Below are positions 2,227 through 21,119 of a DNA stretch of 28,785 nucleotides, piece by piece. The stretch comes from a bacterium. Its GTDB lineage: Bacteria; Bdellovibrionota; FAC87; UBA2466. The notes under the pieces are model-generated. The model saw only the letters and a program-made list of their open reading frames with translations. It ran no database searches and was not told where the DNA came from. Position 1 is the first letter of the stretch, and each line of letters begins with the position of its first letter. The stretch lies in NCBI GenBank assembly GCA_019750655.1, contig JAIEOG010000319.1:1-28785 (forward strand). The letters are read 5' to 3'. A program made the translations under genes and the position numbers.

Positions 2227-4265
2227 GCAGGACGCAACTTACCCGCACTACGCCAGCGCTGCAACGCGGGCGTCAAAATGCGGTTAATAAGTGCCTCGAA
2301 CTCCAAGCCCGAACGCTCTGCCATCACTGCCAAGTCGCTAAAGCCGGGGCTTAGGCCTGGTAGCGGGTTGATTTCCAGGAAGTAAAGCTCGCCCTTAGCA
2401 TCGACTTTAAAATCAATGCGCGCGACATCGCGGCAACCCAAGGAGCGGTAAACCTTGCGCGCGAACGCCGCTATCTTGCGATCCATTTCTTTGCCCAAGG
2501 AAACCGGGCACTCAAGCTGGAAAATATTATTGGAATCGATGGGAAGGTTTTTCGCCTCAAACGAATAGACCGGGTAGCGGCCCGCATCGCGCAAGAAAAC
2601 AATCTCCATGGGCCCTAAGAGCCGCAGCGTCGTGTTCCCGAGCACACCAATCGTGAGCTCCCGGCCTTCGATGTACTCTTCGCAGAGCACGGGTTCTTTG
2701 GATTTATTCCATAGCTCGACGGCGACTTGCACCATCTCCTCTTGCGTGGAAACGACAGACTTGCCGCCAATGCCCTTCGAAGTGCCTTCGTGGTTAGGCT
2801 TTACAATGACAGGGAAACGCAGGCCCCCCTCAATGACTTTCCCGCCTTGGTAGAGACGGTAAGCAGGCGTCTGGATACCATCCTGGCTCAAAAGCTTTTT
2901 GGTAATCGCCTTATCGAGCGTAATGGCCATGCACGTGGCGTCGCTCGCCGTATGTTCAATGCCGAGCAGGTCGCAAATCGCAGGCACCTGCGCTTCGCGG
3001 GCGCGCTTGTTAGAGCCTTCGGCGATATTGAAGACTACGTCGACATTCGCGGCTTTTAGGTTTTCAGCCAGTGTCTTGTTCGCCTCAATACACAGAACTC
3101 GGCCGACTTTCTTCTGCAAGATAGAACTGATCGTGTCGACAGTATTCTGCGAGTCAAATTCTGCTTCGCGCTCGTAATCGGGGTCGCCGGGAGCTTTGCG
3201 CTTGAGGTTATAAACCAAAGCCACTTTCGGCATCTTCGTCGTAAAAATGCGGCGGGGCGATTTAAGCGACTTGCCCTGACGCTTCAGACGCGAGGTCGCG
3301 GCTTCGAAGATTTTCAAGATCGTCTGGTTGTAATCCAACCCTAACGTACGCGTGGCTTCAAAAAGCCCCGCTCCCTGCTGCAGGCTCGGTAAAGCGTTGA
3401 GCTCTAGGAAATAGACTTCACCTTCCGGCGTAATGCGGAAGTCCGCGCGTGCAAAATCCACCGCGCCCGTGACGGGCACAATGCGCTTCATCATTTCAAT
3501 GAGCTGCGCACGCGTCGCGGGTTCCAGTTCGGCTGGACAACGGACGGAAACGGCATCGTCTTGGAAATTTTTTAAGTCGTAGTCGTAGACGTTATCGCCA
3601 AAGCCTTGCTTAGTGCTGAGCACATATTCCAAAGGCTCCAGCACGCCCCCATCGCCAAGACCGGAGATATAAGGCACGGCCACATCACGCCCCAGGACGA
3701 AGCGCTCCACTAAGATCCCGTGTGGGAAAAGCTTCAAGCACTCCGCAGCGTAAGAAAGAAACGCGTCCGAATCTCGGCAAACCGAACGCGAAGTGATCCC
3801 TTTACTGGATCCCTCGTAGTTGGGTTTCACGAAGACCGGGTAAACGACGTCCGAGGCCACGGTTGCCAGTTCGTCCGCACTGTTGATGAAGTAGCCTTCG
3901 ATCACGGGCACGCCGCGCGTCGCGACCATTTGTTTCGTAAGAAATTTGTCGAGCGTCAGGAAGCAGCCATAGGGGCCAGAGCCGACATAGGGGAGTTGGA
4001 GTTGCTCGAAAAGCGTGGGCCCCAGACTCTCACGGCCGATGCCATAATAGCCTTCGGCGGTATTGAAAACGATATCGGGCTTGAGCTCACTAAGGCGCCG
4101 CAGCCATTCGGAGAGGCGCTCCACGGGGGGCATTTCGAGATCGAAAACTTCGTGGCCCACCGATGCCAAGGCGGTATGGATGGCTTGCACTGTCTCCGGC
4201 GTGTCGAACTCCGCTTGTTCTAAAGACTGGTCACGTTTGAGGTTGTAAACGAACGCGATCTTCAA
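2223..4265 (-). CDS. D-Ala-D-Ala-ligase-like protein with two tandem ATP-grasp modules
   Basis: Two homologous halves: KIAFVYNLK...AEFD...VFNTAEG...LDKFLTK...FVKPNYEGSSKG...ARADFR...FLELNALP and KVALVYNLK...AEFD...VFNIAEG...LDKAITK...IVKPNHEGTSKG...ARIDFK...FLEINPLPG. TTG start preceded by GGGAG. Confidence 0.88.
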   Translation of the reverse strand: MKIAFVYNLKRDQSLEQAEFDTPETVQAIHTALASVGHEVFDLEMPPVERLSEWLRRLSELKPDIVFNTAEGYYGIGRESLGPTLFEQLQLPYVGSGPYGCFLTLDKFLTKQMVATRGVPVIEGYFINSADELATVASDVVYPVFVKPNYEGSSKGITSRSVCRDSDAFLSYAAECLKLFPHGILVERFVLGRDVAVPYISGLGDGGVLEPLEYVLSTKQGFGDNVYDYDLKNFQDDAVSVRCPAELEPATRAQLIEMMKRIVPVTGAVDFARADFRITPEGEVYFLELNALPSLQQGAGLFEATRTLGLDYNQTILKIFEAATSRLKRQGKSLKSPRRIFTTKMPKVALVYNLKRKAPGDPDYEREAEFDSQNTVDTISSILQKKVGRVLCIEANKTLAENLKAANVDVVFNIAEGSNKRAREAQVPAICDLLGIEHTASDATCMAITLDKAITKKLLSQDGIQTPAYRLYQGGKVIEGGLRFPVIVKPNHEGTSKGIGGKSVVSTQEEMVQVAVELWNKSKEPVLCEEYIEGRELTIGVLGNTTLRLLGPMEIVFLRDAGRYPVYSFEAKNLPIDSNNIFQLECPVSLGKEMDRKIAAFARKVYRSLGCRDVARIDFKVDAKGELYFLEINPLPGLSPGFSDLAVMAERSGLEFEALINRILTPALQRWRSAGKLRPA

Positions 4266-5914: not shown

Positions 5915-6017
5915 GAGGCTGTTTTAACAAACCCGGGCCTAGACGTAAACAACGGGAATCATAGGCTTTGGATGGCCGGATTTCGTGTTTTCGCGGATTT
6001 CAGGTATAAGGCCGCCC

Positions 6018-6872
6018 ATGCGCCGAGCCTTAGCCCTTCTGAGCCTGATTTGCGGGATAGCCCTACCTTGCGCCTTTGAGATCACGCAGCAAGAAGCCCT
6101 CTTCCAAAGGGGCCTCCAGCACCTAGGGTGGTCGGAAGCCGACTTTGAACGCCAAGTGTCCCTTGCGGTCGACATCAGCGTGGGCCGCCCCGTTTCGACC
6201 GCGGACCTTGTCGAGGAAGAAGACCTAACGGTCGGTGGGGTGCGCGTCAGCGGTGCTATTCTCAATGCCTATGGGGCGCTTTTTAATTCGCTCGCCGCTA
6301 AACAGTTTCCGGCACCGCTTAAGTCGGTAGAAAACAAACTAGTGGTGATCACTCACCAGGATCCCTCTCTCCAAAAGAAGACCGCAGAATGGCTGTCCAA
6401 GTCCAAGCTGCGAGTTCCTGTTGTGGCACTGGTTTCGCCCGTATTTCCTTTGGAGACCACGGATATTGTCGATACCGGCAAAGTCGCCGTCCGATACTCT
6501 GCGGGAGGCGAGCTGCCTGGGATTGCAGCCAAGAAGGTGATTCTTTTAGGAGGGCACTGGAGTGCCTGCTTGCTTTCAACGATTGAAGATCTCGTCGTTT
6601 CGGGTTTCAAACAGGGGCTGAAAAAAGTCGAAATCCAGATCCTCCCCTCCCTCTCCTACACCAACCTTGCTGGTAAATCGCTCGCGGAAATCCACGACAA
6701 ACAAACCACCGCAAACCAAATTCGAAACTCGGTTAAAGAGCTAGAAAAAGCCGTACGCCTGCGCACGATGCACGTCGAAATCGTCGGCAGCCCCTCCGAA
6801 CCGAGCTGGAACAACGTCATCCGCATCACCTCTGGCGAACAGAAAGCGGAAATCCGCTTCGCTGAACTCTGA
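6018..6872 (+). CDS. Hypothetical secreted protein (weak cysteine-hydrolase-like segment)
   Basis: The ORF track starts at 5985; ATG 6018 gives a signal peptide (MRRALALLSLICGIALPCA). Contains KKVILLGGHWSACLLSTIEDL. Confidence 0.65.
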   Translation: MRRALALLSLICGIALPCAFEITQQEALFQRGLQHLGWSEADFERQVSLAVDISVGRPVSTADLVEEEDLTVGGVRVSGAILNAYGALFNSLAAKQFPAPLKSVENKLVVITHQDPSLQKKTAEWLSKSKLRVPVVALVSPVFPLETTDIVDTGKVAVRYSAGGELPGIAAKKVILLGGHWSACLLSTIEDLVVSGFKQGLKKVEIQILPSLSYTNLAGKSLAEIHDKQTTANQIRNSVKELEKAVRLRTMHVEIVGSPSEPSWNNVIRITSGEQKAEIRFAEL

Positions 6873-6876
6873 GCCT

Positions 6877-6891
6877 CTTAAGGTTTCTTAA
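6877..6891 (+). promoter_or_regulatory. CTTAA-N5-CTTAA direct repeat, putative OmpR-family response-regulator box upstream of the methyltransferase-kinase operon
   Basis: CTTAA GGTTT CTTAA (6877-6891), 10-bp period. The same motif occurs upstream of the response regulator. Confidence 0.6.
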
Positions 6892-6933
6892 CTCGCTAGT
6901 TCTCCCACCGGCGAGTTAACTCACAGCCCATCT

Positions 6934-7998
6934 ATGACAGAAAAGCGCGCACCTGAGCCCCTCGACGTGGCCGCTTCTGCACTTCTTAAGCGGCTCAACC
7001 AAGCTGCCCTGGTACCCGCTATTGCTCTGATTGCCGAACTGGAAATCCCCGACCTCTTAGCCGACGGAGAGCAGACAGCCGGCGCGCTCGCCCGCAAGAC
7101 GGGTTCGGATCCCCAGGCCCTTTACCGAATGCTCCGCGCTTTAGCAGCCGACGGGGTATTCGAAGAAAAACCCGGCCGCGTTTTCAAGAACACTGCTCTT
7201 GCCGAGCATCTGCGAAAAAAACACCCGAATTCTTTGCACGGCATTGCCCGCATGGCAGGGGCGTCCTGGAATTGGAATACGTGGGGGCACCTGCCCCATA
7301 GCATCCGCACCGGACAGTCGGCATTTGCGAATCTCCATGGGTGTGGCTTGTTCGAGTTTCTTAAAACATCCCCACCTGCAGCGCGGATCTTCCACGACGC
7401 AATGGGCTCAGGCGCTCGTAGCGCGGCTGCCGACGTGCTTTCCGCTTATGCGTTTGGCGCGCGCCCGCGGCACTTCGTGGATGTCGGTGGCGGAGTTGGA
7501 CACCTGCTCTTCCCACTTCTGGCAACGCACATAGAACACATCGGAACCCTCTTTGATGTCCCGAACGTCGCCCCCGCAGCAGAAGAAGGTATCCGCGCTA
7601 ACGCCCTCGAAACTCGCTGTGCCTTTGTCGGCGGGAACTTTTTCGATCACGTTCCGCCAGGGGCCGACACCTACATTCTGCGCAATATTCTGCACGACTG
7701 GGACGATGAACGCGCTCGGAGGATTCTCGATCGCTGCGCCTCCGCGATGGGCGCGGAAAGTCGATTGATCATTATCGAGCGCGTTTTAGATGTCGGCGGA
7801 CTCGGTGCGCTTCACGACTTACAAATGTTGCTATTGACCTCCGGCGGCAAAGAGCGGACTCTTGCTGAGTTCGAGGAATTACTCGCTGGTGCTGGCCTAA
7901 CCCTCGACGAAACCATATCAACCCCGGCGCAAAGGGTTTTGCTCATCGCCAGAAAATCGCAGAACGGTTTCCATGCAGGATCTTCGACAAGTCCTTAG
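6934..7998 (+). CDS. SAM-dependent O-methyltransferase, class II (dimerisation domain plus Methyltransf_2)
   Basis: N-terminal winged-helix dimerisation region (LEIPDLLADGEQTAGALA...LYRMLRALAADGVF), SAM motif VDVGGGVG, GNFFDHVP, and catalytic ILHDWDD. Confidence 0.93.
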   Translation: MTEKRAPEPLDVAASALLKRLNQAALVPAIALIAELEIPDLLADGEQTAGALARKTGSDPQALYRMLRALAADGVFEEKPGRVFKNTALAEHLRKKHPNSLHGIARMAGASWNWNTWGHLPHSIRTGQSAFANLHGCGLFEFLKTSPPAARIFHDAMGSGARSAAADVLSAYAFGARPRHFVDVGGGVGHLLFPLLATHIEHIGTLFDVPNVAPAAEEGIRANALETRCAFVGGNFFDHVPPGADTYILRNILHDWDDERARRILDRCASAMGAESRLIIIERVLDVGGLGALHDLQMLLLTSGGKERTLAEFEELLAGAGLTLDETISTPAQRVLLIARKSQNGFHAGSSTSP

Positions 7999-9583
7999 TC
8001 CCATTAGCTGGCTCATTGTCATTCTCGGGTTTCACCCGCTCTTCCTAATTCCATTCGAACCAACTCTTAAAGAATACCTCGTTTTAATGGTGGTAGACTC
8101 CACCGCCCTTTTCTTCGCAATGAAGATTGAACTGGCTGCTTTTTTGCGGAAATACCCACCGCCGGTAGAAAACATTTTCGATTTTGATGGCGAGAAGCTT
8201 TCGCGGCTACCCCTAGATCAACGGCGCAAGTTCTACGAGTACTACACGACATTCCCCTCGCGCCGCGCGGCTTTCACCTTGCCTGCAAGCTTCGTCAAAG
8301 CGCTCCCGGGATTTGCAGTGATTGTTTTCTATTGGCACCATGACCAGAGCTACTTCGCCCAGTTCGTGCAAGTTTTACTGGCGGCTTCGGTACCTTGGTT
8401 CTACGTTTTCGGCGCGTCGTTTATTGAAGCACATGCTTTCGTCTCTCGGAAATTCGCCGAGATGCACGAACGCTACGACTGGACAGAAGTTTTTGCAGGC
8501 GTCCGCCTTCCCGATCACCGCCGGGATTTCCGACAACACGAGAACATTTCCATGATCGCCATCGCAGGCTTTGTGATCGCGGTGCAAAGCATCGTGGTCG
8601 CGGGACATGGGCTCGATGGAGTGGAATGGCTGACACTCAAAATCACGATCATCGGTCTATCGGGCATTTGCTTGATGTCACGCATTTGGTATCTCAACCG
8701 CTCTTTCTTCTTGGGCGGTTTGGAATCCATCTTCGCAAAGCTCGCGGCGTTCGACCCACACCAACCTCAAAGAGCCCTGGCCTTGCACACCGCGCCTTTG
8801 CTCGCGCATTTCGAACTCACTTTCAATACGTTGTTGAGCAAACTGCGGGAGTATGAGCAAGAGCTCTCGCATTGGATCTACTCGGAGGCGGAGAAGAACC
8901 GCTTCAAAGCCATCGGGGAAGTCTCGGGGCTTGTGGTGCACGATATCAGCGCACCCCTGCATGTTATGAATTTCTGCGCCGAGAAACTCAAAACGGATCC
9001 CGCACCAGAAGACCGCGCAAAATACATCCACCGTATGCATGAGAGCCTAGGAATGGCGACGGAGCTGGTCGAATCGCTGCGCTCCTGGCTCAAAAACCCA
9101 AACCGTGGTTCCGCTTCGGCTGTGTATTTCGAAGCCCACACGCACGTGCTGAGGCTTTTAGAGTTGCGCTACTACGAAACCCCGGGCACCCAGATCAACT
9201 ACATCATTGATCCGCAAGTGCAGAACTTGAACATCGCGCTCCCTAAGCCGGACTTAATCCACGTCTTGTTCAATCTCTTTTCGAATAGCATTGAGAACCT
9301 ACTCTCCAACAAGACGCCGCAACCGACATTAGAAGTCGTACTGCACGCCCAAGACGCGGGCCGAGCCACCTTGCATGTCCGCGACAATGGATCGGGCTTG
9401 GATGCCGATCGCTTCGAAGAGCTCACCGGCTTTCAAACTTCCCAGAAAAGCCCCACCCGCGATGGATTAGGTTTGCGGCTCATTCGGCGCTTAGTCGAAC
9501 AGTATGGCGGCACCTTGAAGGTGGAACCCGCGCTCAGCCAAGGGACGTTGTTCCGCCTCGAACTTCCATTGAAGGCTAGCTAA
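7973..9583 (+). CDS. Membrane-bound sensor histidine kinase (~6 TM)
   Basis: About 6 hydrophobic segments in the first ~240 aa. H-box GLVVHDISAPL, N-box NLFSNS, G1 DNGSG, G2 GLGLRL. Overlaps the methyltransferase 3' end. Confidence 0.92.
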   Translation: MQDLRQVLSPISWLIVILGFHPLFLIPFEPTLKEYLVLMVVDSTALFFAMKIELAAFLRKYPPPVENIFDFDGEKLSRLPLDQRRKFYEYYTTFPSRRAAFTLPASFVKALPGFAVIVFYWHHDQSYFAQFVQVLLAASVPWFYVFGASFIEAHAFVSRKFAEMHERYDWTEVFAGVRLPDHRRDFRQHENISMIAIAGFVIAVQSIVVAGHGLDGVEWLTLKITIIGLSGICLMSRIWYLNRSFFLGGLESIFAKLAAFDPHQPQRALALHTAPLLAHFELTFNTLLSKLREYEQELSHWIYSEAEKNRFKAIGEVSGLVVHDISAPLHVMNFCAEKLKTDPAPEDRAKYIHRMHESLGMATELVESLRSWLKNPNRGSASAVYFEAHTHVLRLLELRYYETPGTQINYIIDPQVQNLNIALPKPDLIHVLFNLFSNSIENLLSNKTPQPTLEVVLHAQDAGRATLHVRDNGSGLDADRFEELTGFQTSQKSPTRDGLGLRLIRRLVEQYGGTLKVEPALSQGTLFRLELPLKAS

Positions 9584-10481
9584 ACGGGTGGACAGGCCCG
9601 GTCGGCTCCTCAGGTCTCCGGCCGAAGTACAAAGACACAGCCTCTGTACATACCGCCTGTGCAACCACCACATGCCCCTTCAGGCTTTGTGGCGTAATCT
9701 CCCGAAAATGTACCTGCCAGTCAGACCGTTTGCGCTCGCTCCCATGGTACCGCTTGCCCGCTAACCAATCGGTAAGGTGTTGGGTGTTCGGAGGGTAAAG
9801 ATAGTAGGCCTGGTGGTAGTCGGGCGTCGGCGAGAAACTCGGCTCTTCCAACAAGGCCTGTTCCTCCGACAGAAAGCCGTAACCCTGGAGACATTCTCGC
9901 TCGGCAGCATGGAGAGCCGCCGCGAGATGGCCGCGCGCGGCTGTGCCGTAGATGCGGCAGCGGCCTTCTCGGCGTGGCCAGCCAAAAATCCCGACAGTAA
10001 CCGCCTCTTCGCTGAGGCTAGAAAATGCATAAGCCTCAAATGCGTACTCGGATTCGAGCTCTCGGAAAACCCCGCTCGCCACCCAGTCCAACCGCTGGGG
10101 CAGCGTTTCGCCCCTCCACGATCGTAAAAGCCTATCGCGCTCGACCAATTCGTAAAGCGCCGCCTGAGTGGCCCGCGCGTGAGAGCCCCCTAGCGCAACC
10201 CCATTGGACTTCGAAAGCGCCCAGCTGCCTTGCACGGGCGTGGAAGGCTGCTCGAGAATGCTGATCCGTTCGAGAAGTTCGAAGTAGGCTCGCTCCATGG
10301 CCCGCCCTTCTAAGCAGGCGGCACTCCCGTGGGTTGCGAGCCGATCCCCCTGGTGGGCCACCAAACCCGCAAGCTGCAGAACATAAGGGCCACGCTGGAG
10401 GGACCGTTCAAGCACCTCTCCTAAGGCCCAGCCTTCTGGAAGCGGAACCTCTTCGCGTAACGCCTGAAGCTCAGAACTCAT
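9576..10481 (-). CDS. YcaO-like protein (compact, 301 aa)
   Basis: ATP/Mg motifs RAMERAYFELLER and SNGVALG...ALYELVERD, GTAARG...AERECLQ, and the Pro-rich C-terminus GPVHPFS. Start chosen at ATG 10481 (MSSELQ), overlapping the upstream stop. The ORF-track start 10607 lies inside the upstream gene. Confidence 0.82.
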   Translation of the reverse strand: MSSELQALREEVPLPEGWALGEVLERSLQRGPYVLQLAGLVAHQGDRLATHGSAACLEGRAMERAYFELLERISILEQPSTPVQGSWALSKSNGVALGGSHARATQAALYELVERDRLLRSWRGETLPQRLDWVASGVFRELESEYAFEAYAFSSLSEEAVTVGIFGWPRREGRCRIYGTAARGHLAAALHAAERECLQGYGFLSEEQALLEEPSFSPTPDYHQAYYLYPPNTQHLTDWLAGKRYHGSERKRSDWQVHFREITPQSLKGHVVVAQAVCTEAVSLYFGRRPEEPTGPVHPFS

Positions 10482-11130
10482 CGACCTTGCCCACTTCCTC
10501 AAAAAAGCGCTCATAGAGGTGCATCGCCATTTCGAGAGAACTGAGCATTTTCTCAACGGCACAATGGCCTGCCAGCCGATCGAGATCGTGGAGGAGTTCG
10601 GCCGCATGTTCTTTGTCCAACTCCGAGTGGTTTTTCACAACCGTCACGAAGTTTGTAGGCAGATTGCAGGCTTTTTCCAAATCCCGCAGCCATTCGGGCG
10701 ATGCCACTACAGTCAGGTACTCCGCCAAGAATATGTAAGCGAGGTAGAGGGACGGATCTTCCTTGATCAGCGCAAAAACGTAATTCTCCAGGGCTAGGAC
10801 GTAAAACGAGACGCGCCGCTGATCGCGGACATCAAACTTTTCTACTAAGCGTTCCACATCGCGAGCCGCCCAGAGGTCGTGATCGACTTCCTCGTGGATC
10901 TTGGAGGCGAAATAGGCAGCGAGTTCGGGCTCATTGCGCCTTAAGGCTTCTGCCTGCGCCGACTTTAAATGGTGCGGCGTTTTGGCAATCATGTAGTGCA
11001 CGTTATTGAGGTAATGAAAAAGATTGCGCGGCTTGAGCGATCCATTGCGCGTGTTTACGAAAAAAGGCGACTGCTGCGCCTGCAGACTCGCCCACTTGGC
11101 GACTTTCACTTGTAGTAATTGCGATATCAT
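10471..11130 (-). CDS. Heme-oxygenase-like dimetal oxidase (HDO; TenA/PqqC/CADD-like iron-containing redox enzyme)
   Basis: All-helical 219 aa with ligand-type motifs IHEEVDHD, LAEYL and HSELDKEH (H-x3-D-x2-H). ATG 11130 is preceded by GGAG (11140-11137). Confidence 0.85.
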   Translation of the reverse strand: MISQLLQVKVAKWASLQAQQSPFFVNTRNGSLKPRNLFHYLNNVHYMIAKTPHHLKSAQAEALRRNEPELAAYFASKIHEEVDHDLWAARDVERLVEKFDVRDQRRVSFYVLALENYVFALIKEDPSLYLAYIFLAEYLTVVASPEWLRDLEKACNLPTNFVTVVKNHSELDKEHAAELLHDLDRLAGHCAVEKMLSSLEMAMHLYERFFEEVGKVDEF

Positions 11131-11153
11131 AGGCTTCTCCCAAGAAATCCAGC

Positions 11154-11183
11154 GCCGGCCCTCTGGCACACCAGAGAACCGGC
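11154..11183 (-). promoter_or_regulatory. Stem-loop between the small ORF and the HDO gene (mRNA stabiliser/attenuator-like)
   Basis: Minus strand GCCGGTTCTCTGG-TGTG-CCAGAGGGCCGGC: a 13-bp stem (2 G-U pairs) with a 4-nt loop, 10 nt after the small-ORF stop. No U-tract follows. Confidence 0.7.
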
Positions 11184-11193
11184 TTTTCCAGCA

Positions 11194-11226
11194 TTAGATG
11201 CAATACTGCGCGAATTTCTTCATCAT
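11194..11226 (-). CDS. Putative 10-aa precursor peptide MMKKFAQYCI
   Basis: Minus strand: TGA(GNAT stop)AAGGAGG-CCCCC-ATG ATG AAG AAA TTC GCG CAG TAT TGC ATC TAA. A perfect Shine-Dalgarno lies 5 nt (or 8 nt) from the ATG, in the gap between GNAT and HDO, followed by a hairpin. Confidence 0.68.
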   Translation of the reverse strand: MMKKFAQYCI

Positions 11227-11238
11227 GGGGGCCTCCTT

Positions 11239-11856
11239 TCAATGCTGCAGCTGGGGTTTGGTCCCCCAACAAAACTGTTTCAAAAACGCTTCGAGACTCC
11301 GCTGCGTTAGAAATTTCGTGAGACACACATTGGCTCCCCAGCGCTCGGAAAGCTCATAGCCCGTTACGGTGAATCCGAGCTTGGTCAAGATATGGATATT
11401 GGCGAGATTCGCCGGCGAGACATGGGCCTGCGCACGCTCCATCCCCCGCGCCGCGAGCGCCTCCAAAAAGCGAGCGAAAAACTCTTGGAAGTGCCCCTGC
11501 CCTTGGTGTGAGGGCAGAAAGGAAACATGGCGCAGATAGTAAGTGCTCCAATCGAGCGCATTGCCGACGTACACCCCTACCGTGCGGCCCTCGTCGTGGA
11601 AACGGAAGAGATCCGCGTGGCGGCTGTAGAATCCCTCCTTCTCCGCCCAAGATTCCGGCAGGGGCGAAAAACCGCCCTCCGCGATTGAAGCGGCGTAGAT
11701 TTCTTTGAAATGGCGCTGGAAAAACTCTCGGACCGTAGCGATAGATGTCTCTTCGGCTTGAATGCCCCCGCTTAAGCGGCAGGGGAAAAAAGGAGCCCAC
11801 GTGCCGGGATCGGAGTGGGTTGGGTTCTCTCTCATCTCTGAAATCGAGTGAGTCAT
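11239..11856 (-). CDS. GNAT-family N-acyltransferase
   Basis: Motif A FLPSHQGQGHF and motif B VSPANLANIHILTKLGF. ATG preceded by AGGGGG. Confidence 0.85.
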   Translation of the reverse strand: MTHSISEMRENPTHSDPGTWAPFFPCRLSGGIQAEETSIATVREFFQRHFKEIYAASIAEGGFSPLPESWAEKEGFYSRHADLFRFHDEGRTVGVYVGNALDWSTYYLRHVSFLPSHQGQGHFQEFFARFLEALAARGMERAQAHVSPANLANIHILTKLGFTVTGYELSERWGANVCLTKFLTQRSLEAFLKQFCWGTKPQLQH

Positions 11857-11906
11857 ACGGCCCCCTAGTCCCGAGAACTAAACAACGCTAGGGGGGCAAG
11901 TTCGAG

Positions 11907-11941
11907 TTAAGTCCCCTTTTTTTCGGTTAGGAATTATTAAC
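11907..11941 (-). promoter_or_regulatory. Phased CTTAA-like half-sites upstream of the GNAT-peptide-HDO-YcaO operon
   Basis: Minus strand GTTAA (11941-37), CCTAA (11931-27) and CTTAA (11911-07) lie in an exact 10-bp register. CTTAACTCG is shared with 6887-6895. Confidence 0.45.
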
Positions 11942-12668
11942 CGACGCAAGACTGGAGGCGGTAGCTACCACTCGGAAGAAACGCGATTTCGAGTCCGAGC
12001 TCGGAAATCTTTTTGCGCAAGGAAGAAAGGTGGACGTCGAGCGTCTTGGAATCCACCGCGACATCGTTCCAAACGCGTTTCAAGATTTCGTCCCGGCTCA
12101 CTTGGTACCCGGGGGAGGCATGGAAAATCGAAAGGATCTGGAATTCCTTTGCCGTGAGCCGATTCTTCTTCCCATGGGCAATCACATTCAAGGCAATGCT
12201 ATCGAGCTGGAAGAGCGGCTCGGGCGCCGCTTCACCGGCGAGCAACCTTTCGAGCTTCACAATCAACTCCCCCTTCCCAATGGGCTTTGTCAGAAAATCC
12301 CGAGCGCCAAGCTCAAAGCAGCTCCGCAGGGTATCTAGGTCGTCGACTGAGGAGAGAACAACAAAGGGAATTCCCGCTATCCGGGCCGCGCTATGGGGGC
12401 CTTTTAGAAATTGCAGGAAGGATTCTCCCGGGAGGCGCAGATCCGCTAAAAGCAGGTCGGGCCGGGGGCGAGTCTCTAAGGCGCTACAGAACTCCTCTAC
12501 CGACTGGAGGAATGTCAGGCTGTACCGTAAGGCGAGGACCTCTTCGTACACAAAGCGTACGCCGGGGTCGTCTTCGATAATCCAGATGGATTTGGAAGTA
12601 TGTCCGTTCACGCGCCCGCCTGAGGAAAAGGTTGGGCGCAAACTACTCCGCGCCAGGGTCTTCATCAA
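11937..12668 (-). CDS. OmpR/PhoB-family response regulator
   Basis: Receiver (IIEDD, LLLADLRLPG, DFLTKP) plus winged helix (LTAKEFQIL...SRDEILKRVW...TLDVHLSSLRKKI). The true start may be GTG 12611. Confidence 0.93.
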   Translation of the reverse strand: MMKTLARSSLRPTFSSGGRVNGHTSKSIWIIEDDPGVRFVYEEVLALRYSLTFLQSVEEFCSALETRPRPDLLLADLRLPGESFLQFLKGPHSAARIAGIPFVVLSSVDDLDTLRSCFELGARDFLTKPIGKGELIVKLERLLAGEAAPEPLFQLDSIALNVIAHGKKNRLTAKEFQILSIFHASPGYQVSRDEILKRVWNDVAVDSKTLDVHLSSLRKKISELGLEIAFLPSGSYRLQSCVG

Positions 12669-12679
12669 GCCCGGCGCGG

Positions 12680-12694
12680 TTAAGACTTTTTAAG
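12680..12694 (-). promoter_or_regulatory. CTTAA-N5-CTTAA direct repeat upstream of the response regulator (autoregulation candidate)
   Basis: Minus strand CTTAA AAAGT CTTAA (12694-12680), in the 43-nt intergenic gap. Confidence 0.6.
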
Positions 12695-12711: not shown

Positions 12712-13479
12712 TTAGTGCTTCACAGCGGCTTTAGCCGGAGTCGCTTTCACAGCAGTACCGGGCTTAGCCGTCGAATGAGCCGACGTCGGGGTGCGGTTGC
12801 CCGTCGGAGGTGTGATACCCGGCTTCTGGCCAGGGACCGGAAGGGTTCCCGCTGCACGCACTGCCGGCGGAGGCGCCGTCACGGGGCGTTCCGTCACAAC
12901 GGCCACCAAGGTTTCGCCCTTGTCGCCCTTTTGGTTATAAAGGGAAACTTTATTGCCCCGGCTATTCCATTGCGTATAGACCAAGCCCCCTTTGGAGCAG
13001 CTTAAGCCATACTGAGAGTGGACCATCGGAGACAATTCTTTGCAATTCGCTGGGCCACTCGTTTCGGGAGTTCCCAAAATCGTGCTAGCCCGTGTCCCGT
13101 AACCTTCTACGAGTTTTTCCTGCTCGCCCATGAAAGCTTCGACGCGGGCAACGACACCAAACTTGGTCGTCACTTCAATTTGTTTAAAGAGAGGGCTAAC
13201 AGCAGCGCACTTGTACGTTTGCTCATCGCCCTTCGCGTGGCCAGGCTCGCACTTTTTAAAGGCGGGCAAAGTTTTCAGACGCTCTTCCTTCAAGCCGAGT
13301 GGGAATTGCACGATGAACATGGGTTGCGCCGTCGGGCGCTTCCCCAAGCCGCGTGTCAGCGACCCTTTCAGCTTTGGAGAGAAGTAAAACCCAGCGGCCA
13401 CACCGACAATCGCGACGAAAGCTGCTGCTGCCAAAGTTAGTTTTGCAAAACCAGACTGGTTCAAGGCTTTGATTTTCAT
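12712..13479 (-). CDS. Hypothetical membrane-anchored protein with prepilin-like N-terminus and Pro/Thr/Ala/Lys-rich tail
   Basis: MKIKALNQSG|FAKLTLAAAAFVAIVGVAAGFYF, several Cys, and a low-complexity C-terminus (TAPPPAV...TAKPGTAVKATPAKAAVKH). Confidence 0.75.
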   Translation of the reverse strand: MKIKALNQSGFAKLTLAAAAFVAIVGVAAGFYFSPKLKGSLTRGLGKRPTAQPMFIVQFPLGLKEERLKTLPAFKKCEPGHAKGDEQTYKCAAVSPLFKQIEVTTKFGVVARVEAFMGEQEKLVEGYGTRASTILGTPETSGPANCKELSPMVHSQYGLSCSKGGLVYTQWNSRGNKVSLYNQKGDKGETLVAVVTERPVTAPPPAVRAAGTLPVPGQKPGITPPTGNRTPTSAHSTAKPGTAVKATPAKAAVKH

Positions 13480-13797: not shown

Positions 13798-14184
13798 TTA
13801 CTGAGCGCTGAGTCTGAGGTAATTCGTGTTCCCGTTCTCATATTGAAAACGGTAATCCACTGCCCCATTGCACTCTTTGGACGGCCGAGCGTAACGCGTG
13901 AGTTGGAATGTTTGGTAATACGCGTTGTTCGTTAAATCGGTGTCGACCTGCATATAGAGGTATGGCGAGCGGTTTTCGTTCGCATAAGAATACCGGTGCC
14001 ACACGGCATAAGTAGCGTACGAAGCGATGAGATCCATCTTCGACCAACCCGCTGAGTCATAAATTTTAAAATAAATCCGACTCCCCGTGTCGTTCTGAAA
14101 GCAGGTCAATGCATACTCGTTATCGACGGCAAACGACTGTGCTGACGCAGTTATAAAGAATATCCCCAAGAATAGTTTTTTCAT
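13798..14184 (-). CDS. Hypothetical small secreted Tyr-rich protein
   Basis: ATG 14184 preceded by GGGAGG. Signal peptide MKKLFLGIFFITASAQSFA; two Cys; many Tyr/Asn. The ORF track starts at 14241. Confidence 0.75.
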   Translation of the reverse strand: MKKLFLGIFFITASAQSFAVDNEYALTCFQNDTGSRIYFKIYDSAGWSKMDLIASYATYAVWHRYSYANENRSPYLYMQVDTDLTNNAYYQTFQLTRYARPSKECNGAVDYRFQYENGNTNYLRLSAQ

Positions 14185-14259
14185 TGTTCCTCCCATGTTG
14201 TGAACATGCGAAAGCGTGTCGTGCAGATCCGCACTATTCAAGGAAGGCTGCGTTAGGAT

Positions 14260-16054: not shown

Positions 16055-17113
16055 TCAGAGGTTTAATCGAAACCGGACTTCGCCTATGTTTTCGGGGCCG
16101 TTTCCTCGATCGAGGTAGCGGTAGAAGATATAGGCTGCAAGAGCGGGGTCTAGGTCGAGAATAGTCCCGGCCTGGGCGTGTTGGATATTTTGCGGGCCAT
16201 TGAGCGTCTCAAGACGGCCAAATAGCTTGGTGCCTGGGAAGAACGGTGTCTGGAGTGTGGCCGCCATTCCAAAGGGGCCTGTCGTCCGGATGCTGTCGGT
16301 CAGCATCCCTCCGAAGCATTCTGCACCGATGCGCCAGTCCGTACCTTCAAACCGCATTTCCGTGAAGACGTTTGCGACCCAATCCGAACGGTAGTTAACG
16401 CTCGCGGAGTCGGCTTGCTGGTGGTAGAAGCCCGCTGCGCCCCACATCCACTGCAGATTCCCGACGTGAAAGGTCGCTCGGAGTCCACCCGTAAGAGCCT
16501 TGGAGTTATTCGTATTGAGATTGAACAAGCCGCTGCCATTGAATGCACCGACATGAATCAAGACATCCTTCACGGGCTCGTAACGGATCTCGGCGCCGAT
16601 ATCACGGCCAATGAAAAGCGCACGGTGCGTTTCGTTGTAATCCGGGAGCGCCACACCTGAAAGATCCGGCGACCACCAGGGATTGAACGTTGGAGTGAAT
16701 AATCCAAACTTCAAGGACCACTCGGATCCCTGCCCCAGACGCTCAGGCGTATGGAGATCGATATACCCTTCCACGGGCAGAACGACCGGCAAGAGAACCG
16801 TCGAAAATTCCCGCGTCTGGCCCAGGGAAAATCGGTAGCTGATATGCTCGCCCGCCTCGCCCCAAGCCGTTAGGCGAACAGACGGAATGGAAAAACCTTG
16901 AACGACGACCCCGCCCGCTTGGTAGGACGCATCCAAGCGCAAACCCACGAGGAGAAGCTGGCGGCGGCTTAGACTCCCAAAAAGCGAAGGGCGCGCAGCG
17001 GGTTCGCCTTCCGCAGTGGCCGTGTCGGCCAACGGAGGTGCGTCGGTGAGGGTTTCATCGGCCCACGCCGCCGTCGATAAAAGGACTAACAGAATCCAAC
17101 GCATGTGCCTCAC
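16055..17113 (-). CDS. Outer-membrane beta-barrel/porin (OprO/OprP-like)
   Basis: Signal peptide (MRWILLVLLSTAAWA), alternating amphipathic strands, motifs GRDIGAEIRY and GAFNGSG, terminal strand EVRFRLNL. Start overlaps the pilS stop. Confidence 0.7.
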   Translation of the reverse strand: MRHMRWILLVLLSTAAWADETLTDAPPLADTATAEGEPAARPSLFGSLSRRQLLLVGLRLDASYQAGGVVVQGFSIPSVRLTAWGEAGEHISYRFSLGQTREFSTVLLPVVLPVEGYIDLHTPERLGQGSEWSLKFGLFTPTFNPWWSPDLSGVALPDYNETHRALFIGRDIGAEIRYEPVKDVLIHVGAFNGSGLFNLNTNNSKALTGGLRATFHVGNLQWMWGAAGFYHQQADSASVNYRSDWVANVFTEMRFEGTDWRIGAECFGGMLTDSIRTTGPFGMAATLQTPFFPGTKLFGRLETLNGPQNIQHAQAGTILDLDPALAAYIFYRYLDRGNGPENIGEVRFRLNL

Positions 17114-18780
17114 CCGACCGCCGGAAGGTGGATTTCAAACTCAGTCCCCTTCCCGACAGTTGATTGCACGCGGATTTCTCCACGCATCGCTTCGATAATC
17201 TTGTAAGCAGTCGCAAGCCCCAGGCCCGTGCCCTTTTCCTTGGTGGTAAAGAACGGCTCGTAAAGGTGCGAAAGCGTCTTTTCCGACATCCCCTGCCCCT
17301 GATCACGCACCCAAAACCGCACGCGTCCCGTGCCGGCTCTGGCGCACCCGACTTCAATCACGCCCGGTTTGTCCATCGACTGGATGGCATTGATGACGAG
17401 ATTCAAGAGGACCTGCCGAAGCTTTTCGGGCTGTGCATGCGCAAAGATGTCGGGCTCATAGGCCTCTCGCAGCTCGATATCCGTACGGACATTCACGCCA
17501 CCTTTGAGCGATTGAATTTTGCCTGGCTTATCCGGATGCCGGAGAGCAAAGAGCACGTCGGCAATGAGCTTGGGTAGGTCCACTGGCTCAAGCTTGAGAT
17601 TGGCGGGTTTCACAAAATCGAGAAACTCGGAGATGAGCCGATTCAGGCGATCGATCTCGCGCAACGCAATGTCCATGAGCTTTTGGTTTTCCCCGCCCAC
17701 TACTTCACGAGGTAAAGAAGAACGCAGCATTTCCACGCTGGCACTCATCCCCGCCAAGGGATTGCGGATCTCGTGTGCAATCCCGGCCGCCAGCTGCCCG
17801 ACGGCGGCGAGTTTTTCATTCTGCTTTACGCGTTGTTCGAGATTCAAAACCTTGGTGACATCCTGGAAAAGCAGAACAAACCCTTCAGTCGATTCTCCGT
17901 GAAGCAACCCCCCGGCTCCATTTCCTTCGAGGGCAGCCACGTCCCCACGCAAGAGGGCCGCATGCCCACTTTGCTGAAACTCGACGACTTGCTGCAGGCG
18001 CGTACGTGACTCACTCCGCTCGAAGAACGGCAGGAGCCCCGGCGCAGCCTCCTGCAGGGTCTTTCCTACCACCGTGGTTTCCAAACCCAGCAAGTGGCTG
18101 GCTGCGGGATTCAGAAAGCCAATCCGCCAGTGTGCATCCACTGTCAGAACGCCCGTGGGCATCTCGGAGAGAATGCGCTGTTGGAGCGCAATGAGTTCAT
18201 CCACGCGGCGGCTTTTATCGGCGAGACTTAGTGTCGTGCGTTGGAGCTCCTCGCTCAAATACCCGCCGACCATCCCAAGCGTGAAAAACAGAGCCGTATT
18301 CACGCCCCAGAGCATCCAGCTCCCCGGATCGCCCTGGACAAACAGAATAGCCGCGAGCCCTACACTGGCACCTAACGCCGCCCCCAAAGCTGCGCGTTGG
18401 TACAGAATGAGTGCTACGGAAAGGATCTGGATGAGGTAGAGAAGCGAATAGAGGCTTTCTTTACCGTCGGAAAGAAAAATCCAAACGGAGATAAGAAAGC
18501 AATCAAAAGCAACTTGCGTGAGAGCTACCCAACGACTCGGCGGCAGGCGTTCCACAATCAAAGAGGAAAGCGCATTGAATCCGAAAGCGACACACAAAAG
18601 CGCATAGCCCAAGACCAACGATGGTCCCACTCCCGTCGTCTGGAAGATTTGTTGGATAACCCCGACTAGCAATAGGCCATAGAGCACGGCCAGACGCGCG
18701 ATCATCAGCCATTGGCAGGCGCGGGAAAGATCGATTTGCGGCCCAGGCATCCAGGCCGCTTGGCGTGCACGGGCCAACAT
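17110..18780 (-). CDS. pilS: PilS-like sensor histidine kinase (multi-TM, PAS, HisKA, HATPase)
   Basis: Multi-TM N-terminus, PAS (ILSEMPTGVLTVD...LNPAA), H-box AAGIAHEIRNPL, NLVINA, FFTTKEKGTGLGL. Position directly after pilC. Confidence 0.82.
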   Translation of the reverse strand: MLARARQAAWMPGPQIDLSRACQWLMIARLAVLYGLLLVGVIQQIFQTTGVGPSLVLGYALLCVAFGFNALSSLIVERLPPSRWVALTQVAFDCFLISVWIFLSDGKESLYSLLYLIQILSVALILYQRAALGAALGASVGLAAILFVQGDPGSWMLWGVNTALFFTLGMVGGYLSEELQRTTLSLADKSRRVDELIALQQRILSEMPTGVLTVDAHWRIGFLNPAASHLLGLETTVVGKTLQEAAPGLLPFFERSESRTRLQQVVEFQQSGHAALLRGDVAALEGNGAGGLLHGESTEGFVLLFQDVTKVLNLEQRVKQNEKLAAVGQLAAGIAHEIRNPLAGMSASVEMLRSSLPREVVGGENQKLMDIALREIDRLNRLISEFLDFVKPANLKLEPVDLPKLIADVLFALRHPDKPGKIQSLKGGVNVRTDIELREAYEPDIFAHAQPEKLRQVLLNLVINAIQSMDKPGVIEVGCARAGTGRVRFWVRDQGQGMSEKTLSHLYEPFFTTKEKGTGLGLATAYKIIEAMRGEIRVQSTVGKGTEFEIHLPAVG

Positions 18781-20030
18781 CAGCCACCCCCCGCCACCTT
18801 GTCGGCAAGCTGGAAGACCGGCAAGTACATGGCCAGGAGCAAGAACGCGACGATCACACCGACGATTAGAATAATTGCCGGCTGCAACATGCTGGTAAGC
18901 GAGTTGATGGCGTCATCTACTTCGTCGTCATAGATATTTGCGACTTTGTTGAGCAGTTCGTCCAAGCGCCCGGTCATCTCTCCAATGTTCACCATGTGAA
19001 TAACCATGGGGGGATAGATGTTTCTGGCGGCCAATCCCGCGGCGATGGTCTTACCCTCTTGGATGAAGGCAATCGTAACGCGCACACTGTCGCGCACCGC
19101 CAGATTGGTCATGAGCTTTTGGCAGATCTCTAAGGCCGCGATAAGCGGCACGCCGCTCGCTACCAGCGTTCCCAACGTGCGCGTAAATTGCGCCACCGCA
19201 GAACGCATCACCAAAGATCCAAAAAGAGGTACTTTCAGGACAAAAGGGTCCCATTTCTGTCGGAAAGACGGCATCCGATAAAGTGCCACCGCGGAGAACG
19301 CAAACCCGATGAGCCCCGCTACAACGAAGAGGAAGTTCGCCTGAAACCATTTCGACATGGCTAAAACGAACTGCGTCAACTCAGGAAGTTCAGCCTTCCC
19401 TTCCGCATAGAGCTTGGAAATCTCTGGCACGACTTTGACGAGCAAAAAGATCAAAACGCCGATGGCGATGACCAGAGTAAAGAGAGGGTAAGACAAGGCC
19501 TTGATGACCTTTGCTTTCAAGCGATCGAGTTTTTCCAACTGCACACCGACCTGCTTGATCGCGCGATCCAAAGTACCGCTCAACTCACCGGCTTCGACGA
19601 TACGGACGAAGAACTCAGAAAACACGCCTGGGTAGCCCGCGAGGGCATTGGCGAGTGAGTTCCCGCCTTCAATATCGGCCTTCATCCCTTCCAGGATGGA
19701 TTTTAGACGGCCTTTTTTTTCCTGTAGCGCCAAGATCTCAAGGCCCTGCACAACGGGTACGCCGGAATCAATGAGGGAGGAAAACTGCTTCGTGAAGAGA
19801 ATGAGCTGCTTGAGTTTTACTTTGCCTTCAAACAGAGAGGAAAGCCCGCGGAGCGTGCCCTCTAAGCCGCCACCACTCCCTGGCGCCCCTCTATCCGGCG
19901 CGGGAGCAAGCGACTCCGGGCGAATCTGCATGGAGCGTAGGCGCAGACGGGCCTCGGCCTCGTCCAACCCTTCAATTACGCCTTGCACCCGCTCGCGTTG
20001 GCGGGTGACGCCGGTATAGCGGTATCGCAT
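18780..20030 (-). CDS. pilC: Type IV pilus platform protein PilC (T2SS F family)
   Basis: LILFTKQFSSLIDSGVP, IEGGNSLA, GELSGTLD, MVNIGEMTGRLDELL, AMYLPVF. Confidence 0.96.
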   Translation of the reverse strand: MRYRYTGVTRQRERVQGVIEGLDEAEARLRLRSMQIRPESLAPAPDRGAPGSGGGLEGTLRGLSSLFEGKVKLKQLILFTKQFSSLIDSGVPVVQGLEILALQEKKGRLKSILEGMKADIEGGNSLANALAGYPGVFSEFFVRIVEAGELSGTLDRAIKQVGVQLEKLDRLKAKVIKALSYPLFTLVIAIGVLIFLLVKVVPEISKLYAEGKAELPELTQFVLAMSKWFQANFLFVVAGLIGFAFSAVALYRMPSFRQKWDPFVLKVPLFGSLVMRSAVAQFTRTLGTLVASGVPLIAALEICQKLMTNLAVRDSVRVTIAFIQEGKTIAAGLAARNIYPPMVIHMVNIGEMTGRLDELLNKVANIYDDEVDDAINSLTSMLQPAIILIVGVIVAFLLLAMYLPVFQLADKVAGGG

Positions 20031-20039
20031 CGCTTACCC

Positions 20040-21119
20040 TCACCCCGCCAAACGGCGGATCTCCCTAAGGCCTTTGATCAGTTCATCTGGATCATGAGTG
20101 GTCGCGAGAGCTTCTTCAGGAGCGACAATTCCTTGCCGCACCAGCTGGATAAGCGATTGATTGAAGGTCATCATCCCGCTCACGTCTTGTCCGACAACCA
20201 TCGCTGACGGGATTTGAAAGAGTTTGTTCTCGCGGATTAGGTTTCGAATGGACGCATTCGGAAGCATGAGCTCATACGCGAGAGCGCGCCCCTTCTTGTC
20301 CACTCGCTCGATTAAGCTTTGTGTGATGATCCCCTCGAGGCACATCGAAAGCTGCATGCGGATCTGATCTTGCGCTTCGGGTGGAAACACCTGCACCATA
20401 CGCGTAATGCTTTGGTAAGCGCTGTTCGTATGCAAGGTACTAAACACCAAGTGGCCCGTCTCGGCGAGGGCGAGCGCAGTTTCGATCGTTTCACGATCGC
20501 GCATCTCCCCTACCATCACAACATCGGGATCTTCGCGCAAAGCGCCCTTAAGGGCGGGACCAAACGCCGGCGCATCTTGGCCGATCTCACGTTGGTTCAC
20601 CAGGCTGTTGCGGTGGGAGTGAATGTACTCAATCGGATCTTCAATGGTGATGATGTGCAGATTGGACGTTTCGTTCAAGGCATCGACCATCGCTGCCAGA
20701 GTCGTGGTTTTGCCACTGCCCGTAGCACCCGTGATCAAGATCAAACCGCGTGGCTTACGAATGAGCGAATCCACCGCCGGAGGCAAGCCGAGTGTGTTTA
20801 GACGCGGCACTTCGAAAGGAATATGGCGAAAGGCGCCAGCCACCGCTCCACGCTGAAAGTAAACGTTAGCGCGAAATCGCGCGACGTCACGGACGCCGAA
20901 TGAAAAATCGATTTGGCGCTCTTCTTCAAAGCGCGCACGCTGCGTGTCTGTCAGAACCGAGTAGCAAAGCTCTTTCGTATCTGCGGGCATCAGCGAAGTG
21001 GTTTTCGCTTTTAAGATGCGGCCGTTCACACGGAAGCTCGGCGGGCTCCCCGACGTGATGTGCATATCGCTTGCTTTGTGCTCCAGCATGGCGCGGAGCA
21101 GAGTGGATAAAGTCACCAT
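20040..21119 (-). CDS. pilT: Type IV pilus retraction ATPase PilT
   Basis: GATGSGKTTTLA, ITIEDPIE, REDPDVVMVGEMRD, TGHLVFSTLHTN, and the SIRNLIRE (AIRNLIRE-type) motif. Confidence 0.97.
   Translation of the reverse strand: MVTLSTLLRAMLEHKASDMHITSGSPPSFRVNGRILKAKTTSLMPADTKELCYSVLTDTQRARFEEERQIDFSFGVRDVARFRANVYFQRGAVAGAFRHIPFEVPRLNTLGLPPAVDSLIRKPRGLILITGATGSGKTTTLAAMVDALNETSNLHIITIEDPIEYIHSHRNSLVNQREIGQDAPAFGPALKGALREDPDVVMVGEMRDRETIETALALAETGHLVFSTLHTNSAYQSITRMVQVFPPEAQDQIRMQLSMCLEGIITQSLIERVDKKGRALAYELMLPNASIRNLIRENKLFQIPSAMVVGQDVSGMMTFNQSLIQLVRQGIVAPEEALATTHDPDELIKGLREIRRLAG

Follow-up and report, generated by a model that had tools for sequence, protein, structure and literature searches.

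In a stretch of 28,785 nucleotides from a bacterium of the Bdellovibrionota (GenBank assembly GCA_019750655.1, contig JAIEOG010000319.1, positions 1 to 28,785; hereafter called the window), a 10-codon open reading frame (ORF) between a GNAT acetyltransferase gene and the gene of a haem-oxygenase-like dimetal oxidase (HDO) is a real gene, conserved in all related loci examined, and probably codes for a minimal RiPP-type ribosomal precursor peptide, its translation and modification being inferred and no chemistry having been shown. The pathway proposed for it is YcaO-dependent and RiPP-like, and is distinguished by an unusually small precursor, the lack of an RRE partner, the presence of the HDO and a two-component system of its own.

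Read on the minus strand, the Shine-Dalgarno (SD) sequence AAGGAGG (11238-11232) directly abuts the GNAT stop codon TGA (11241-11239) and is followed, after five C/A bases, by the ATG at 11226, from which ATG ATG AAG AAA TTC GCG CAG TAT TGC ATC TAA (11226-11194, with the stop codon at 11196-11194) encodes MMKKFAQYCI. Both the SD sequence at the GNAT stop and the ORF had been reported in an initial annotation made from the sequence alone, and both were recovered, as was its statement that the ribosome-binding site of the tiny ORF surpasses those of the flanking genes, with an SD of seven bases as compared to GGGGG for GNAT and GGGAG for HDO. Initiation at a second ATG (11223), 8 nt from the SD sequence, would yield a peptide of nine residues beginning with MKKFA, a type known from other loci. 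An overlapping long ORF (11003-11326, minus strand) was discarded since it crosses the non-conserved spacer, and a search of positions 10900-12100 against Rfam did not match any family. The features of the region are compiled in Table 1.

Table 1. Features of the peptide-HDO-YcaO cassette and its surroundings in the window
Feature	Position	Strand	Basis and remarks
Direct repeat CTTAA-N5-CTTAAC, a candidate regulator site ahead of the methyltransferase-kinase operon	6877..6892	+	Motif count
O-methyltransferase	6934..7998	+	PF00891, 3e-40; overlaps the kinase start by 26 nt
Histidine kinase of 536 aa, polytopic in the membrane (about 5-6 TM) and without a large outer domain	7973..9583	+	Convergent on the YcaO gene
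Compact stand-alone YcaO, ~301 aa from ATG 10481 (ATG 10514 also possible)	9576..10481	-	PF02624, 8.6e-14; overlaps the HDO stop
HDO, 219 aa	10471..11130	-	Fold, ligands, profile matches
GC-rich hairpin of 13 bp, loop UGUG, terminator- or attenuator-like, weak U-tail	11154..11183	-	Folding, -24.4 kcal/mol
Tiny ORF MMKKFAQYCI + TAA	11194..11226	-	Proposed precursor: leader M(M)KKFA, core QYCI, Cys9 as proposed YcaO target
SD sequence AAGGAGG of the tiny ORF	11232..11238	-	Sequence; SD core 4-10 nt before the start in 19/19 genome loci
GNAT acetyltransferase of 205 aa, the operon's upstream gene	11239..11856	-	PF00583, 1.6e-7; orthologue in 15/19 loci
Half-site CTTAACTCG, located in the spacer ahead of GNAT	11903..11911	-	Identical to 6887-6895 (+)
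OmpR-type response regulator, just upstream of GNAT	11937..12668	-	PF00072 and PF00486; adjacent orthologue in 16/19 loci
Second CTTAA-N5-CTTAAC copy, just upstream of the response-regulator gene	12679..12694	-	Motif count

With respect to the distribution of the ORF, an HDO profile searched against 401 genomes of the phylum of the window retrieved about 20 strong orthologues, each of them with a YcaO gene directly downstream and most of them with a GNAT gene upstream, and a related-locus search yielded no locus with a single HDO protein as query and three loci with a 4-row alignment. The 21 distinct loci combining HDO and YcaO are the window, 17 further sampled genomes of the phylum, one metagenome-assembled genome (MAG) labelled as Polyangiaceae and two metagenomic loci at which HDO and YcaO are fused. 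In all 21, an ORF of 9-12 codons with an SD sequence is found at the same place, and the check suggested in the initial annotation, which was to look for a short ORF shared by the GNAT-HDO intergenic regions of related clusters, was thus positive in every locus examined. In the loci of the phylum and in the Polyangiaceae-labelled MAG, where it begins with GTG, the tiny ORF sits 80-160 nt ahead of the HDO start.

The peptides of the 19 genome loci are MMKKFAQYCI (window), MRRKFALYSF, MRKKFAMPCF, MKKKFALVSV, MKKKFALLSL, MKKKFAKYTL, MKKKFAQHCL, MKNKKKYAQFCF, MKKRFAQSCI, MKKFAKWCA, MKKYALLTF, MKKKYAKICT, MRKKYAHASM, MKKKFARICF, MKKKFAQLSF, MKKFALISL, MKKYGFVTV, MKKLFATVCL and MKKKFAHMSF, and the two metagenomic fusion loci encode MKKFAAITF in one case and two tandem copies of MKKQFALWTF in the other (L060/L061). 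Their consensus is M-K/R-K-(K)-F/Y-A-x-x-[C/S/T]-x-stop. When the 21 distinct loci are aligned at the C-terminal end of the peptide, position -6 is occupied by F (16) or Y (5) and position -5 by A (20) or, once, by G; positions -4 and -3 are free, the penultimate residue is C (9), S (7) or T (5) without exception, and the last one is mostly hydrophobic. C, S and T are the three nucleophiles of YcaO cyclodehydratases. The expectation that such ORFs would end in an aromatic residue, Cys and any residue was therefore right in that a conserved C-terminal feature exists, but this feature is really x-x-[Cys/Ser/Thr]-x, and an aromatic residue before the Cys is not conserved. Likewise, the proposed division into a mini-leader MMKKF and a core QYCI holds insofar as M-K-K-(K)-F/Y-A is fixed while the last four residues vary, with the difference that the leader also takes in F/Y-Ala. 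A substrate composed of leader and core, as the initial annotation had inferred, is in line with the presence of the ORF in 21/21 loci and with this fixed N-terminal and variable C-terminal part. The A-rich Lys codons following the ATG could in part reflect selection for translation efficiency and not recognition by an enzyme.

The synonymous variation of the codons shows that it is the peptide, and not the RNA, that is under selection: Ala is encoded by all four GCN codons, Ser by AGC as well as by TCN codons, Lys, Phe and Cys by both of their codons each, and TAA, TGA and TAG all occur as stop codons. Even in a permissive form, the peptide pattern has no other match on either strand in the 326 kb of the loci, in which 1,820 ORFs fall within the range of 8-12 codons, and in the bacterium's own genome of 3.25 Mb it is matched only twice more among 15,208 ORFs of that size, both times without an SD sequence. 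Where an HDO relative has no YcaO gene behind it, as in the case of an HDO-GNAT fusion, the tiny ORF was not found upstream; its presence tracks the HDO-YcaO pair, and chance alone is ruled out by these controls.

The stem-loop of 13 bp that had been placed at 11183-11154, ahead of the HDO ribosome-binding site, was found again upon folding, with 13 consecutive pairs (two of them G-U) and a loop of 4 nt. It starts ten bases past the stop codon of the tiny ORF, and the 121-nt region containing it has a z score of -3.2 when compared to shuffled sequences. Its tail, GCUGGAUUUCUU, is only a weak U-run, and the HDO start codon (ATG 11130) is preceded by GGGAGAAG. A strong GC-rich hairpin 6-15 nt past the stop of the ORF is present in 17-18 of the 19 genome loci (z between -1.7 and -8.2), where the structure is kept, the sequences are unrelated and a clear U-run follows in several cases, which agrees with the earlier suggestion that a downstream hairpin sets the ratio of precursor to enzymes. 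Sequestering of the HDO ribosome-binding site by the hairpin was not seen, as the hairpin of the window ends 12 nt before the HDO SD sequence and the situation is similar elsewhere; the hairpin looks like a partial terminator or stabiliser and not like a translation attenuator. In six loci the stop codon of GNAT overlaps the start codon of the peptide gene in the form ATGA, indicating translational coupling.

As regards RNA, a single seawater metatranscriptome run contained a contig of 190 nt without differences to positions 8851-9040 of one of the other loci (L049, peptide MKKFALISL), spanning the tiny ORF, the hairpin and the HDO start. At a depth of about 2, carry-over of DNA is not excluded, and the contig attests to presence only and does not prove transcription. 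For the sequence of the window itself, the only matching runs were of DNA and came from a drinking-water metagenome.

The HDO protein has no Pfam match of its own. Over 70 HDO sequences, however, E81, H84, W87, E137, H168, D172 and H175 are invariant, so that by sequence the metal-ligand set of three His and three carboxylates (E81, H84, E137, H168, D172 and H175) is intact. A Foldseek search with its AF2 model (pLDDT 96.4) returned 3dde and CADD (p-aminobenzoate synthase) with TM scores of 0.75-0.80, followed by TenA, UndA, PolF and HrmI, and comparison of the HDO profile to the PDB likewise gave 3dde (1e-15) and CADD (1e-5). The HDOs characterised so far act mostly on free amino or fatty acids.

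In the YcaO protein, the motifs ELLER, SNG and ELVERD as well as the residues of the ATP/Mg motifs (E68, E71, R72, E111, E114, R115 and D116) are invariant. Its closest relatives of solved structure are the azoline-forming enzymes MusD and TruD (2.5e-8) and LynD (1.4e-6), and next come McbD and thioamide-forming archaeal YcaOs that are independent of TfuA (MJ1094, 1.6e-6; 6ci7, 3.5e-5). At the C-terminus there is a conserved H-P-x-x end in place of the canonical PxPxP, and in the complex model described below the peptide is contacted by the final residues of this end. For the GNAT protein, the nearest solved structures by profile are YqjY, RimI and N-alpha-acetyltransferases of the Naa50 type, but these matches are weak and only the acetyl-CoA region aligns. 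Natural fusions of HDO with YcaO (P0082, P0087 and P0080) and of HDO with GNAT (P0071) exist (loci L056, L060 and L058), which ties these enzymes to one pathway. The locus of the HDO-GNAT fusion has neither a YcaO gene nor the tiny ORF; an ORF of 83-89 aa is located upstream, and a Ser/Thr kinase is encoded nearby.

When the three chains were modelled together, the peptide was predicted to lie on conserved residues of YcaO (S53/A54, R72, S92, E196, Q199, F286 and the C-terminus) and not on HDO. The score of this complex was 0.53 as compared to 0.06 for the best control, which lends weak support only and is not counted among the main arguments: in the calibration, 58 of 80 solved complexes and 2 of 110 mismatched pairs attained the mark of 0.53, models scoring up to 0.60 were often wrong, and no chain of less than 30 residues was included.

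Clustering of all ORFs within 10 kb of the 19 genome loci revealed only five conserved families around the tiny ORF, namely HDO and YcaO (19/19 loci each), the histidine kinase (17/19), the OmpR-type regulator (16/19) and GNAT (15/19), the absences of kinase and regulator being mostly at contig ends. The kinase orthologues next to the cassette align over their full length including the sensor part, at 24-38% identity and with E-values down to 1e-118. No E1-like/ThiF (Ocin-ThiF) or RRE partner, no leader peptidase or protease and no exporter is conserved within 10 kb of the 19 loci. A FMN dehydrogenase of the SagB/McbC type was neither among the conserved neighbours nor among the Pfam matches of the genes of the window, and TfuA (PF07812) was found neither among the conserved neighbours nor in the bacterium's own genome, which is 93% complete. 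The fact that several canonical steps are thus left without an assigned enzyme is an argument against the interpretation of the peptide as a precursor.

The O-methyltransferase has no orthologue beside the cassette in the other loci and is a window-specific accessory; a part in tailoring the Tyr residue of QYCI is speculation. The repeat CTTAA-N5-CTTAAC matches exactly twice in the window, where 0.26 matches would be expected even with one mismatch allowed, and may be bound by the OmpR-type regulator. For the half-site CTTAACTCG the evidence is weak, with two matches against 0.42 expected and 7 of 100 shuffles reaching two. Taken together, the repeats and the half-site suggest that one regulator controls all three units. 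As a family-wide operator CTTAA-N5-CTTAA was ruled out, since it occurs only sporadically in other loci. Mantel tests comparing the distances between core peptides to those between kinase sensors, kinase cores and YcaO proteins gave r = 0.03-0.09, which is not significant, and were underpowered.

Elsewhere in the window, the minus strand carries, upstream of the cassette and in the same orientation, a type IV pilus block (17110-22852) coding for a PilS-like kinase, PilC (T2SSF) and two ATPases, one PilT-like and the other PilB-like with an MshEN domain. Pfam gave no match for five ORFs of 147-408 aa (12712-13479, 13798-14241, 16055-17113 and 27544-28770 on the minus strand, 5985-6872 on the plus strand), and none of them is conserved beside the cassette in other loci; the first three, the only ones to be searched against NCBIfam, had no match there either. 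Two further long ORFs are found on the minus strand (1069-2226 and 2223-4265).

Based on these observations, the following course of events may be envisaged. The operon consisting of GNAT, peptide, HDO and YcaO genes would be transcribed from upstream of GNAT. A high output of peptide would be ensured by the strong SD sequence or, at other loci, by ATGA coupling to GNAT, and the hairpin would reduce read-through or stabilise a short message, so that the peptide would exceed the enzymes in amount. The compact YcaO is assumed to bind the short leader directly without the help of an RRE partner and, with ATP, to cyclise Cys9 onto the carbonyl of Tyr8, yielding a thiazoline, or an oxazoline where Ser or Thr takes the place of Cys. 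Next, the diiron HDO might carry out an O2-dependent oxidation, the likeliest being a dehydrogenation, either of the azoline to the azole or as desaturation of a neighbouring residue, comparable to what has been proposed for VarO (see below), and GNAT might acetylate an amine, probably an N-terminus; the roles of both enzymes are drawn from analogies. The product, finally, may be a ligand of the linked polytopic kinase and OmpR-type regulator, or be controlled by them. That it may be a signal is inferred solely from the constant linkage of kinase and regulator and from the polytopic architecture of the kinase, and the missing exporter argues against signalling, unless the mature product is small and hydrophobic, as many of the cores are.

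An alternative hypothesis assumes that the tiny ORF is a regulatory leader only, the translation of which governs the hairpin by ribosome-dependent termination or anti-termination or by stabilisation of the mRNA and so sets the expression of HDO and YcaO, without the peptide being a substrate. Regulatory leaders of nine codons, as in cat and cmlA, are established, and the hairpin lies in most loci within the reach of a ribosome terminating on the ORF and is followed by U-runs in several. However, such a function explains neither the constancy of F/Y-Ala nor a penultimate residue confined to C/S/T across enzymes of about 25-40% identity, and it accords poorly with a hairpin that leaves the HDO ribosome-binding site uncovered and with the tandem duplication of the ORF in L060; as the sole function of the ORF, regulation is therefore considered improbable. 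In particular, a leader or attenuator sensing Cys, which the initial annotation had put forward as the alternative to its own reading, has to be rejected, because Ser or Thr replaces Cys in 12 of the 21 loci. Judging by the analogy to microcin C mccA (see below), the roles of regulator and substrate are not mutually exclusive. Even less credible is the assumption that the ORF arose by chance or codes for an unrelated small protein, and that the enzymes act on a small molecule or on another protein. The many ORFs of 8-12 codons in the genome and the preference of known HDOs for free amino or fatty acids (UndA, PolF and HrmI being among the fold matches) would leave room for it, but with a background of about 1e-4 per small ORF, the recurrence of the same pattern at the same place and with an SD sequence in 21/21 loci makes this a very remote explanation.

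A different question is what the YcaO enzyme does if the peptide is its substrate. It might form a thioamide or an amidine instead of an azoline, or activate the backbone for another reaction. In favour of this are its matches to the TfuA-independent thioamide-forming archaeal YcaOs, its C-terminal motif, which is not the canonical PxPxP, and the fact that the closest pathway precedent with a haem-oxygenase-like enzyme, that of thiovarsolin, is a thioamide pathway. On the other hand, a strict C/S/T at one position is what cyclodehydration predicts and is needed neither for thioamidation nor for the formation of an amidine, TfuA was not detected in the genome or among the conserved neighbours as outlined above, and the best matches of solved structure are azoline-forming heterocyclases. 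A chemistry other than azoline formation on the precursor peptide is thus possible but rather unlikely.

Among known systems, a search of the accessible literature found no paper describing the cassette, nor any joining a YcaO and an HDO or diiron enzyme with a tiny precursor or a kinase, with the exception of those on thiovarsolin. The thiovarsolin cluster of Streptomyces varsoviensis comprises the precursor gene varA, the YcaO gene varY, the TfuA gene varT and varO for a haem-oxygenase-like protein, VarO being the proposed dehydrogenase of the pathway (PMC6511847). It resembles what is proposed for the cassette in that a YcaO and a haem-oxygenase-like enzyme share one pathway with a ribosomal peptide, and its products are very short and N-acetylated (PMC6511847). 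However, VarA is a long repeat precursor, whereas that of the cassette has 9-12 residues; YcaO and TfuA give thioamides there, whereas at the cassette no TfuA was found and the fixed C/S/T points to an azoline; and acetylation is performed by an unlinked host enzyme with no kinase/regulator pair reported, whereas the cassette includes both GNAT and a histidine kinase with its response regulator.

The heterocyclases of linear azol(in)e peptides and cyanobactins (McbBCD, SagBCD, LynD, TruD and MusD) share with what is proposed here an ATP-dependent YcaO acting on Cys, Ser or Thr and a precursor made up of leader and core. They differ in that their leaders, about 20-40 residues long, are read by an RRE belonging to an E1-like domain, either fused or in a partner protein, and in having a FMN dehydrogenase that forms the azole, a protease and an exporter. 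None of these is conserved at the cassette, where the YcaO of about 300 aa stands alone, the proposed leader has 5-7 residues, and HDO is found where an oxidase would be expected.

With regard to size, the nearest counterparts are the microcin C gene mccA (7 codons) and the biarylitide gene bytA (5 codons), tiny RiPP precursor genes with strong ribosome-binding sites that are missed by gene callers. In the mcc operon, a hairpin between the precursor and enzyme genes raises the ratio of precursor to enzyme, so that mccA is substrate and part of a terminator device alike. In contrast to the cassette, these systems rely on adenylation by MccB and on biaryl coupling by a P450, respectively, and contain no YcaO, HDO or linked two-component system. 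By way of analogy only, the peptide quorum-sensing circuit Agr (AgrD/AgrB/AgrC/AgrA) also links the gene of a small modified peptide to a response regulator and a multi-pass membrane histidine kinase that has no large sensor domain. However, the cassette lacks a processing and export protein of the AgrB type, its regulator is of the OmpR and not of the LytTR type, the kinase families differ, and no covariation of core and sensor was seen in the underpowered comparison given above.

If the proposed interpretation is true, the peptide would be among the shortest RiPP precursors known, the cassette would provide the first case of a YcaO system reading a leader of about six residues in the absence of an RRE partner, and haem-oxygenase-like diiron oxidases would be assigned a new role on ribosomal peptides. 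Going further, one may tentatively imagine peptide signals of a new class, very small, oxidised, acetylated and containing azol(in)es, which would be made from precursors of 9-12 residues in the absence of an RRE partner, a diiron HDO acting as the oxidase. The linked polytopic kinase and OmpR-type regulator would be their receptor pair and the variable four-residue core the specificity code, and the whole would amount to RiPP-based cell-to-cell signalling in Bdellovibrionota-like and other Gram-negative bacteria; this remains doubtful at present. Owing to the linkage to kinase and regulator, a role in signalling could be tested with a synthetic peptide of 4-10 residues. The HDO family is represented by 270 sequences (clusters at 50% identity, E <= 1e-30) in a library of 1.84 billion proteins and is therefore not rare, and since gene callers miss the central gene, genome-mining tools overlook the whole class.
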